DNA from: a virus | Taxonomy: Duplodnaviria; Heunggongvirae; Uroviricota; Caudoviricetes | Strand: one strand, 5' to 3' | IMG/VR virus record: IMGVR_UViG_2721755658_000005 | Location: 1-46,563 of that record | DNA length: 46,563 bases | Shown here: piece by piece, positions 9,250-10,023 of the stretch | Position numbering within the stretch: the first letter of the stretch is position 1 | Layout of the letters: every line of letters starts with the position of its first letter | Translations under genes and position numbers: made by a program | The notes under the pieces: generated by a model | Seen by the model: the letters and a program-made list of their open reading frames with translations, nothing else | Database searches by the model: none | What the model was told of the DNA's origin: nothing

Positions 9250-10023
9250 ATGGATATTACTGAGTTTCCTTCTGGAGTAATTGAACACCTTGGCTGGTAT
9301 GTATACCGATTGATTGATCCGAGGGACGGAAGCACCTTCTATGTAGGGAAAGGCAAAGGTAACCGCGTATTTGCCCATATGCGCGGTGAAGTGGCAGCGA
9401 CTGATGATGACGAGTTACTGAGCAACAAGCTAAAGCAAATTAGAGAAATAAGGTTAGCAGGACTTGAGGTTATCCATGTCATCCATCGACACGGAATGAC
9501 TGATGAAAAGACGGCGTACGAAGTTGAAGCAGCACTTATTGATGCCTACCCTGGGTTAACGAATATCATGAATGGTGCTGGCAGCAATGAATTCGGCGCC
9601 GCGCATGTCAAAGAGTTGATAGCAACATATCAACCCGAAACCATAACATTTCATCATAAAGCATTAATGATTTCCGTTAACAGAAGTGCAAAGGATTCAG
9701 AGCTTTATGATGCGGTTCGATTTAGCTGGCGCATTAATGTCTCTCGCGCCAGCCAAGCAGAAGTCATTCTTGCTACTGTAAGGGGGATCGTTCGAGGGGT
9801 TTTCATTGCTGATAAATGGCTCAAATCAACACGTGAAAATTTCCCTACGATGAAATACTGGGACGAGGATCCGGACTTTGAGGCAACACAAAGTTCTCGC
9901 TATGGTTTTGAAGGTCGAGAAGCCCCACCTGAAATAGCAAATCTTTATCTTGGAAAAAAAATACCAGATGAATTAAGAAAAAAAGGAGCTATGTCCCCGG
10001 TCCGTTACTCACCTAATTTTTGA
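9250..10023 (+). CDS. GIY-YIG nuclease-domain protein with uncharacterised C-terminal domain
   Basis: N-terminal [29 protein letters not shown] matches the GIY..YIG..R pattern; alternative TTG start at 9199. Confidence 0.6.

Follow-up and report, generated by a model that had tools for sequence, protein, structure and literature searches.

The question raised by the 46,563-nt stretch of viral DNA studied here (IMG/VR record IMGVR_UViG_2721755658_000005, Caudoviricetes; the entire stretch is called the window below) is what kind of nuclease is encoded by the stand-alone GIY-YIG gene in positions 9250-10023, lying between repeats at one end of a prophage. An earlier note on this DNA, made from its letters alone, suggested a homing endonuclease or a nuclease of defence or anti-defence. 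According to our analysis, the gene is, with a probability of about 93%, an ordinary copy of PD-T4-3, also called CMoRE, a prophage-borne anti-phage restriction enzyme directed against DNA with hydroxymethylcytosine, the activity of this particular allele being predicted from its sequence. The function, mechanism and structure of the system itself have already been described. Family membership, intactness of the signature residues, structural identity to a crystallised enzyme, genomic context and module boundaries were established in this analysis, and substrate specificity, cleavage pattern, oligomeric state and phage protection are taken from the literature on a 98.4% identical protein.

Identity and signature residues of the encoded protein

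The gene and its parts are arranged as follows.

9250-10023, plus strand: CMoRE/PD-T4-3 gene, intact open reading frame (ORF) with an ATG start, 257 amino acids
9250-9630, plus strand: N-terminal part of the ORF
9403-9414, plus strand: codons of D52-D53-D54-E55, the acidic run of the autoinhibitory loop (role from PMC12923530)
9631-10020, plus strand: C-terminal modification-sensing domain, residues 128-257

In RefSeq, the same coordinates of a near-identical E. coli record carry WP_000355484.1, a "LEM-3-like GIY-YIG domain-containing protein". The N-terminal GIY-YIG domain reported in the earlier note is confirmed by the Pfam family PF22945 (LEM-3_GIY-YIG), which matches residues 28-110 (E-value 2.1e-14), the motif YVYRL...YVGKGKGNR occupying residues 17-39. 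NCBIfam yields no matches for the protein, and its C-terminal part (about 130 residues) has no family match in either Pfam or NCBIfam. Full-length models are far more specific: the PADLOC model PD-T4-3 (PDLC04031) aligns in positions 1-255 of 256 with residues 1-256 (E-value 2.4e-140), and PHROG 5356 is matched with an E-value of 2e-143. A phmmer search against the PDB identifies CMoRE from E. coli O157:H7 (9U75 and 9U8D, E-value 3.7e-172) in an alignment without gaps. Identical residues comprise 253 of 257 (98.4%) in the comparison with 9U75, the four differences being T51A, E55D, Q169K and N197H, and 219 of 257 (85%; 38 differences, again no gaps) in the comparison with the enzyme of avian pathogenic E. 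coli (APEC) O1 (9U7U and 9U7Z). The gene is also common, being present at no less than 95% DNA identity (95-100%) in 837 of 5426 complete E. coli genomes; the identical protein heads a cluster of 1045 members in a public protein collection, where 6562 clusters match at E-values of at most 1e-5.

The family has been characterized in several studies. The system was first found in E. coli ECOR68, according to a 2026 paper citing a functional selection of 2022 (PMC12923530); the name PD-T4-3 is missing from the main text of that earlier paper, which mentions just "a GIY-YIG nuclease" (PMC9519451). Liu et al. renamed it CMoRE and described a type IV modification-dependent endonuclease that binds and cuts DNA with 5-hydroxymethylcytosine (5hmC) and glucosyl-5hmC (5ghmC), sparing DNA with cytosine or 5-methylcytosine (5mC). 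The enzyme is a tetramer and requires two modified cytosines, cutting at CN11/N9G with 2-nt 3' overhangs. Its GIYxY-YIG motif comprises Y17, Y19 and Y31, and an acidic loop autoinhibits it, the 4A mutant being toxic and cutting unmodified DNA. The C-terminal domain binds 5-hydroxymethyl-dCTP, with the main chain of Y127 touching the hydroxyl of the 5-hydroxymethyl group. The gene functions from its native promoter, and protection is direct, not by abortive infection; both the 98.4% and the 85% identical proteins cleave 5hmC and 5ghmC DNA and protect against T2, T4 and T6 (all PMC12923530). Consistent with this, deletion of the native gene in E. coli NILS69 makes the strain sensitive to Tevenvirinae, and earlier work cited in the same study reports T2, T4 and T6 as targets of PD-T4-3 (bioRxiv 10.1101/2024.12.20.629700). 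A 48%-identical homologue degrades T4 DNA, sparing the unmodified DNA of T4-GT7 (PMC12366544).

The residues on which this activity depends can be traced in the protein from the window. Y17, Y19, Y31, R39, R80, V92, L96, Y127 and the DDDE loop are all present. In the alignment of 31 homologues, with identity down to 55%, Y17, Y19, Y31, R39, E93, N105 and Y127 are invariant, as is L96, and V92 is nearly so. We take R39, E93 and N105 to be catalytic, from general knowledge of GIY-YIG enzymes; all three accompany the three tyrosines of the GIYxY-YIG motif, so that there is no loss of conserved catalytic residues, an outcome that the earlier note had envisaged. The acidic run D52-D53-D54-E55 is the same string as in the active APEC O1 enzyme, residues 50-53 of the loop having low confidence in the AlphaFold2 (AF2) model. 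Judged by alignment, V92 and L96 would lie in the tetramer interface and Y127 would contact 5hmC. The architecture is type I of the PD-T4-3/CMoRE family, that of a single gene encoding a GIY-YIG nuclease at the N-terminus, a flexible linker and a C-terminal sensing domain.

Given these features, the allele would act as follows. The C-terminal domain would bind 5hmC or its glucosylated form in incoming DNA, with a tetramer (dimer of dimers) recognising a pair of modified cytosines separated by about 21 bp, and the N-terminal domain would cut between them (CN11/N9G, 2-nt 3' overhangs) in the presence of Mg2+ or Mn2+. The acidic loop D52-E55 over the active site would shield unmodified host DNA from the enzyme. 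The lysogen is thereby expected to be shielded from T-even phages directly, without abortive infection. The gene is a likely lysogenic-conversion "moron" that brings along an upstream region and a terminator hairpin of its own.

The C-terminal domain and related enzymes

The C-terminal domain was called unknown in the earlier note, which holds insofar as no profile covers it; the literature, in its turn, assigns it as the domain sensing 5hmC and 5ghmC (PMC12923530). The published view gives this sensor a fold of its own, without homologues. Among the 31 family members, the C-terminal domain has no match to ASCH, EVE, YTH or any other Pfam family at E-values up to 5, and phmmer with this domain alone against the PDB finds CMoRE itself as the sole match. 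Foldseek lists ASCH, EVE and YTH families for the domain, all below significance (E-values 0.07-0.5, template modelling (TM) scores 0.33-0.53), and its structural neighbours are PUA-like readers of marginal similarity. The PUA-like superfamily (ASCH, EVE, YTH) supplies readers of EVE-HNH enzymes and of archaeal McrB. The link of the C-terminal domain to this superfamily is suggestive, not conclusive.

As to its closest relatives, CMoRE of O157:H7 and of APEC O1 share with the protein from the window the length, the two-domain layout, the GIYxY-YIG motif, the acidic loop, the interface residues and Y127. The O157:H7 gene is likewise adjacent to pinE, the serine invertase gene, but its outer neighbours differ (an AraC regulator there, the HTH/ImmA/BRO-N genes and an AAA ATPase here). 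McrA from the e14 prophage of E. coli K-12 occupies the same slot beyond pinE and belongs to the same class of modification-dependent, single-polypeptide restriction enzymes, but it is an unrelated protein, an HNH nuclease for 5mC and 5hmC DNA with another reader domain, encoded on the opposite strand. McrA is blocked by glucosylation of hydroxymethylcytosine; unlike McrA, CMoRE cuts 5ghmC DNA.

Type IV enzymes dependent on 5hmC or 5ghmC, namely PvuRts1I/AbaSI and the EVE-HNH enzymes (VcaM4I), have a PD-(D/E)XK or HNH nuclease fold, as opposed to GIY-YIG in CMoRE, and the opposite order of domains; the similarity of their readers to that of CMoRE is marginal. The catalytic fold and the active-site set of Tyr, Tyr, Arg, Glu and Asn are common to CMoRE and to I-TevI, Eco29kI and Hpy188I. 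CMoRE differs from these three by the extra tyrosine (GIYxY), the inserted acidic lid loop and the reader of modification in place of sequence-specific recognition, and, unlike I-TevI, it has no homing context.

Lytic jumbo phages (about 255-285 kb) infecting Serratia, Pectobacterium and Pseudomonas also encode full-length homologues of CMoRE (38-45% identity, 97-99% coverage), for instance Serratia phage Moabite (6406-7161) and Pseudomonas phage OBP (158703-159449). Depositors label these homologues homing endonucleases or GIY-YIG endonucleases. Possibly the jumbo phages use them to attack co-infecting phages whose DNA is modified.

The cargo island and its boundaries

The window holds an e14-like prophage with an HK97-type head, a Mu/P2-like contractile tail and an invertible tail-fibre segment, integrated at tRNA-Thr(CGU) (thrW), between proA and the pao operon. 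The whole prophage, of about 41 kb, lies within the window, since tRNA-Thr(CGU) is found at the integrase end and the conserved end sequence at the other. The major capsid gene is frameshifted in the near-identical SC476 record, the frameshift being known from that record alone. At the tail-fibre end of the prophage, a cargo island of low GC content (33-43%, versus 50-59% in the tail genes) extends from pinE to the prophage end. Its order outward is pinE, hairpin C, CMoRE, repeat B with a DinI-like relic, the ImmA/M78, HTH and BRO-N genes, repeat A, an AAA ATPase with a small ORF, and the end sequence. The features around the gene, from the prophage end inward, are listed below.

3603-3939: conserved prophage-end sequence (about 335 nt), beside a truncated LysR gene and the pao operon
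4081-5793, minus strand: AAA_15/AAA_21 ABC-type ATPase, 570 amino acids, the C-terminal 250 or so without assignment
5823-6107, minus strand: 94-amino-acid ORF after the ATPase
6280-6386, no strand: repeat copy A, separating the AAA ATPase of the outermost cargo slot from the BRO-N/HTH/ImmA module
6577-7338, minus strand: BRO-N gene
7645-8022, plus strand: HTH gene
8026-8559, plus strand: ImmA/M78 peptidase gene
8873-8953, plus strand: relic of a DinI-like gene (last 32 or so codons), abutting repeat B, found by tblastn
8955-9061, no strand: repeat copy B, which bounds the CMoRE module on the left, with the hairpin core in 9023-9061
9062-9249, plus strand: non-coding upstream stretch accompanying the gene from genome to genome
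about 10044-10082, no strand: repeat copy C, hairpin between the convergent CMoRE and pinE genes, right module boundary
10084-10638, minus strand: pinE, serine invertase of the tail-fibre inversion switch (Pfam Resolvase and HTH_7; RefSeq pinE)
45120-45195, minus strand: tRNA-Thr(CGU), beside the integrase end

The neighbours are those that the earlier note named, with the pinE invertase on one side and the BRO-N, HTH and ImmA genes on the other, and its description of a discrete cassette between repeats is borne out as well: repeats A, B and C are real, and homology breakpoints fall on copies B and C. Copies A and B are 87% identical over 107 nt, and copy C has in common with them just the hairpin core of about 40 nt, with a 3-nt indel; none of 100 shuffles reproduced the core match. 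The core pattern is absent from the K-12 e14 locus. At the gathering threshold, Rfam finds tRNA-Thr alone in the window, and the repeats correspond to no curated RNA family. RNA folding of hairpin C gives -19.8 kcal/mol (z -4.2) on the plus strand and -25.8 kcal/mol (z -3.75) on the minus strand, and it is likely a bidirectional terminator for the convergent genes. Repeat B is the 3'-end relic of a convergent gene ending in the hairpin core, and PGAP labels both A and B as a partial "capsid protein" pseudogene. The repeat element adjoins DinI-like genes at the ends of lambdoid prophages, the pair being intact near the integrase or ssrA end; the relic next to repeat B retains 69% identity over 32 residues to a DinI-like query from a lambdoid prophage (E-value 2.5e-8), with a deletion and an internal stop.

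Comparison of the window with eight other loci places the left breakpoints of homology at 8955/8958, where repeat B begins, or at 9040/9053, within the hairpin core; with other genomes that have the gene, homology begins at 9040-9056. The right breakpoints are at 10084/10086, just past hairpin C, including genomes that have the gene but lack pinE. In loci with other cargo, the pin-side homology starts at 10044 or 10059, inside hairpin C. The conserved junction at repeat A spans approximately 6192-6386 in other genomes. We infer that the repeats are conserved module-boundary sequences (terminator hairpins and gene-end relics), whose short homology lets prophages swap cargo. They give no support to a cassette system that is integron-like or driven by an invertase.

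The upstream HTH/ImmA unit is closed by a terminator-like site in 8843-8861, and because of that CMoRE forms a transcription unit of its own. Its promoter is presumably in the upstream region 9062-9249, where a weak candidate, identified by eye with 8 of 12 matches and below the scan threshold, consists of TTGTGA (9189-9194) and TAATAT (9212-9217) with a 17-nt spacer. CMoRE is also independent of the HTH, ImmA and BRO-N genes, since in most genomes it occurs without them. The HTH and ImmA/M78 proteins are similar to the defence-operon regulators CapH/CapP (PADLOC capH, E-value 6e-11; capP, E-value 5e-15), and the divergent BRO-N gene or an adjacent module may be under their control.

Related phages do lack the insertion, as the earlier note proposed to check, and the slot is polymorphic. 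The cargo slot is anchored by pinE itself, a fixed gene of the phage with 91% DNA identity to its K-12 e14 counterpart. The position beyond pinE holds mcrA, encoding a type IV enzyme, in K-12 e14, and an autotransporter gene in ECNB21-M121; in CPEC80 a pin remnant, whose homology beside this cargo begins at 10044, is followed by mcrC and an AAA ATPase, and in PK8241 the prophage terminates directly after pinE. CMoRE, for its part, is always found at the prophage end, beside varying defence or other cargo, the next outward being an AraC regulator in O157:H7 TW14359 and two hypothetical genes, a type II restriction-modification system or a SIR2 protein in other genomes; it also occurs without pinE, beside lambdoid tail-fibre genes.

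The outermost cargo varies in the same manner. The prophage of E. coli SC476, otherwise 99% identical, carries retron Ec48 (reverse transcriptase and effector) where the window has the AAA ATPase, the swap (3940-6195 in the window, 6944-9595 in the SC476 locus) being bounded by the end sequence 3603-3939 and repeat A. The retron had been assumed for the window from SC476 and was ruled out by direct comparison, positions 3940-6195 being different DNA. The slot of the ATPase and the 94-amino-acid ORF has a GC content of 33-35%. The ATPase gives only generic, ATPase-level matches to the NsnB, AriA, Old, GajA and PtuA models (best E-value 3.9e-31, partial), and it may be a defence candidate absent from the catalogues.

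The pinE-adjacent slot of e14-like prophages is thus seen to accommodate three unrelated kinds of restriction system that depend on DNA modification, McrA in K-12, McrBC-like in CPEC80 and CMoRE here. A literature search on the e14/pinE slot as a defence hotspot returned irrelevant papers alone, its short terms having matched unrelated words. Taken jointly with the structural comparison, these data allow for a tentative proposal, to which we assign slightly less than even odds, that the 5hmC sensor is a very divergent PUA-like (ASCH/EVE/YTH) reader and that the slot is a hairpin-delimited exchange site, where McrA, McrBC-like systems and CMoRE swap by recombination at the shared terminator hairpin of about 40 nt.

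Competing explanations and implications

Of the functions offered by the earlier note, that of a defence nuclease is retained, in the form of the PD-T4-3/CMoRE family, and those of homing and anti-defence find no support. A free-standing GIY-YIG homing endonuclease would cut a cognate allele lacking the intron or cassette and multiply through recombinational repair, with the flanking repeats being homing scars. This is the least probable of the explanations considered: the protein has no sequence-specific C-terminal DNA-binding module like that of I-TevI, its C-terminal domain being the CMoRE sensor, and no Pfam DNA-binding domain, and there is neither an intron or intein nor a conserved target gene, with a cognate empty site, that the insertion would split or adjoin. 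The gene resides in a variable cargo island, and in other prophages its slot is occupied by mcrA, McrBC-like genes or an autotransporter, or is left empty. Very unlikely, though less so, is a role in the service of the prophage, with the enzyme degrading DNA of competing phages during lytic growth or countering a host system. The gene is indeed phage-borne, and in the lytic jumbo phages with full-length homologues superinfection exclusion or competition is plausible; still, the biochemical activity would be the same restriction of modified DNA, no anti-defence activity has been reported, and protection was observed in uninfected cells with the gene alone from its native promoter (PMC12923530) and from the native chromosomal copy (bioRxiv 10.1101/2024.12.20.629700). 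Intermediate between these two, and likewise unlikely, is a silent or decaying copy in a defective prophage. Relic sequences surround the gene, there is no strong consensus promoter, and the capsid gene is frameshifted in the SC476 record, so the prophage may be defective. On the other hand, the ORF is full-length with every conserved or functional residue intact, the gene is conserved at 95-100% DNA identity in 837 genomes, and homologous native copies are active.

Several observations weigh against the CMoRE explanation. The predicted activity of the exact allele is drawn from the 98.4% identical relative, and T51 and E55, two of its four differences from the O157:H7 protein, are in or beside the autoinhibitory loop, although E55 preserves the charge and the active APEC O1 enzyme likewise has DDDE. 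The promoter scan finds no strong sigma-70 consensus promoter upstream of the gene on the plus strand, and expression in the strain is presumed. Moreover, a distant homologue also cuts Mu DNA, which contains carbamoylmethyl-adenine, and thus the specificity may exceed 5hmC (PMC12366544).

With the gene assigned to CMoRE, the recurrence of modification-dependent restriction systems of unrelated families beside pinE, bounded by a shared hairpin, is a minor residual point. A cryptic PUA-like 5hmC sensor, if true, would be an incremental correction, by which CMoRE would join the general evolutionary pattern of type IV enzymes. For the bacterium, the prediction is that a lysogen with this prophage withstands T-even phages whose cytosine is hydroxymethylated or glucosylated, and this predicted resistance bears on host-range work in phage therapy.
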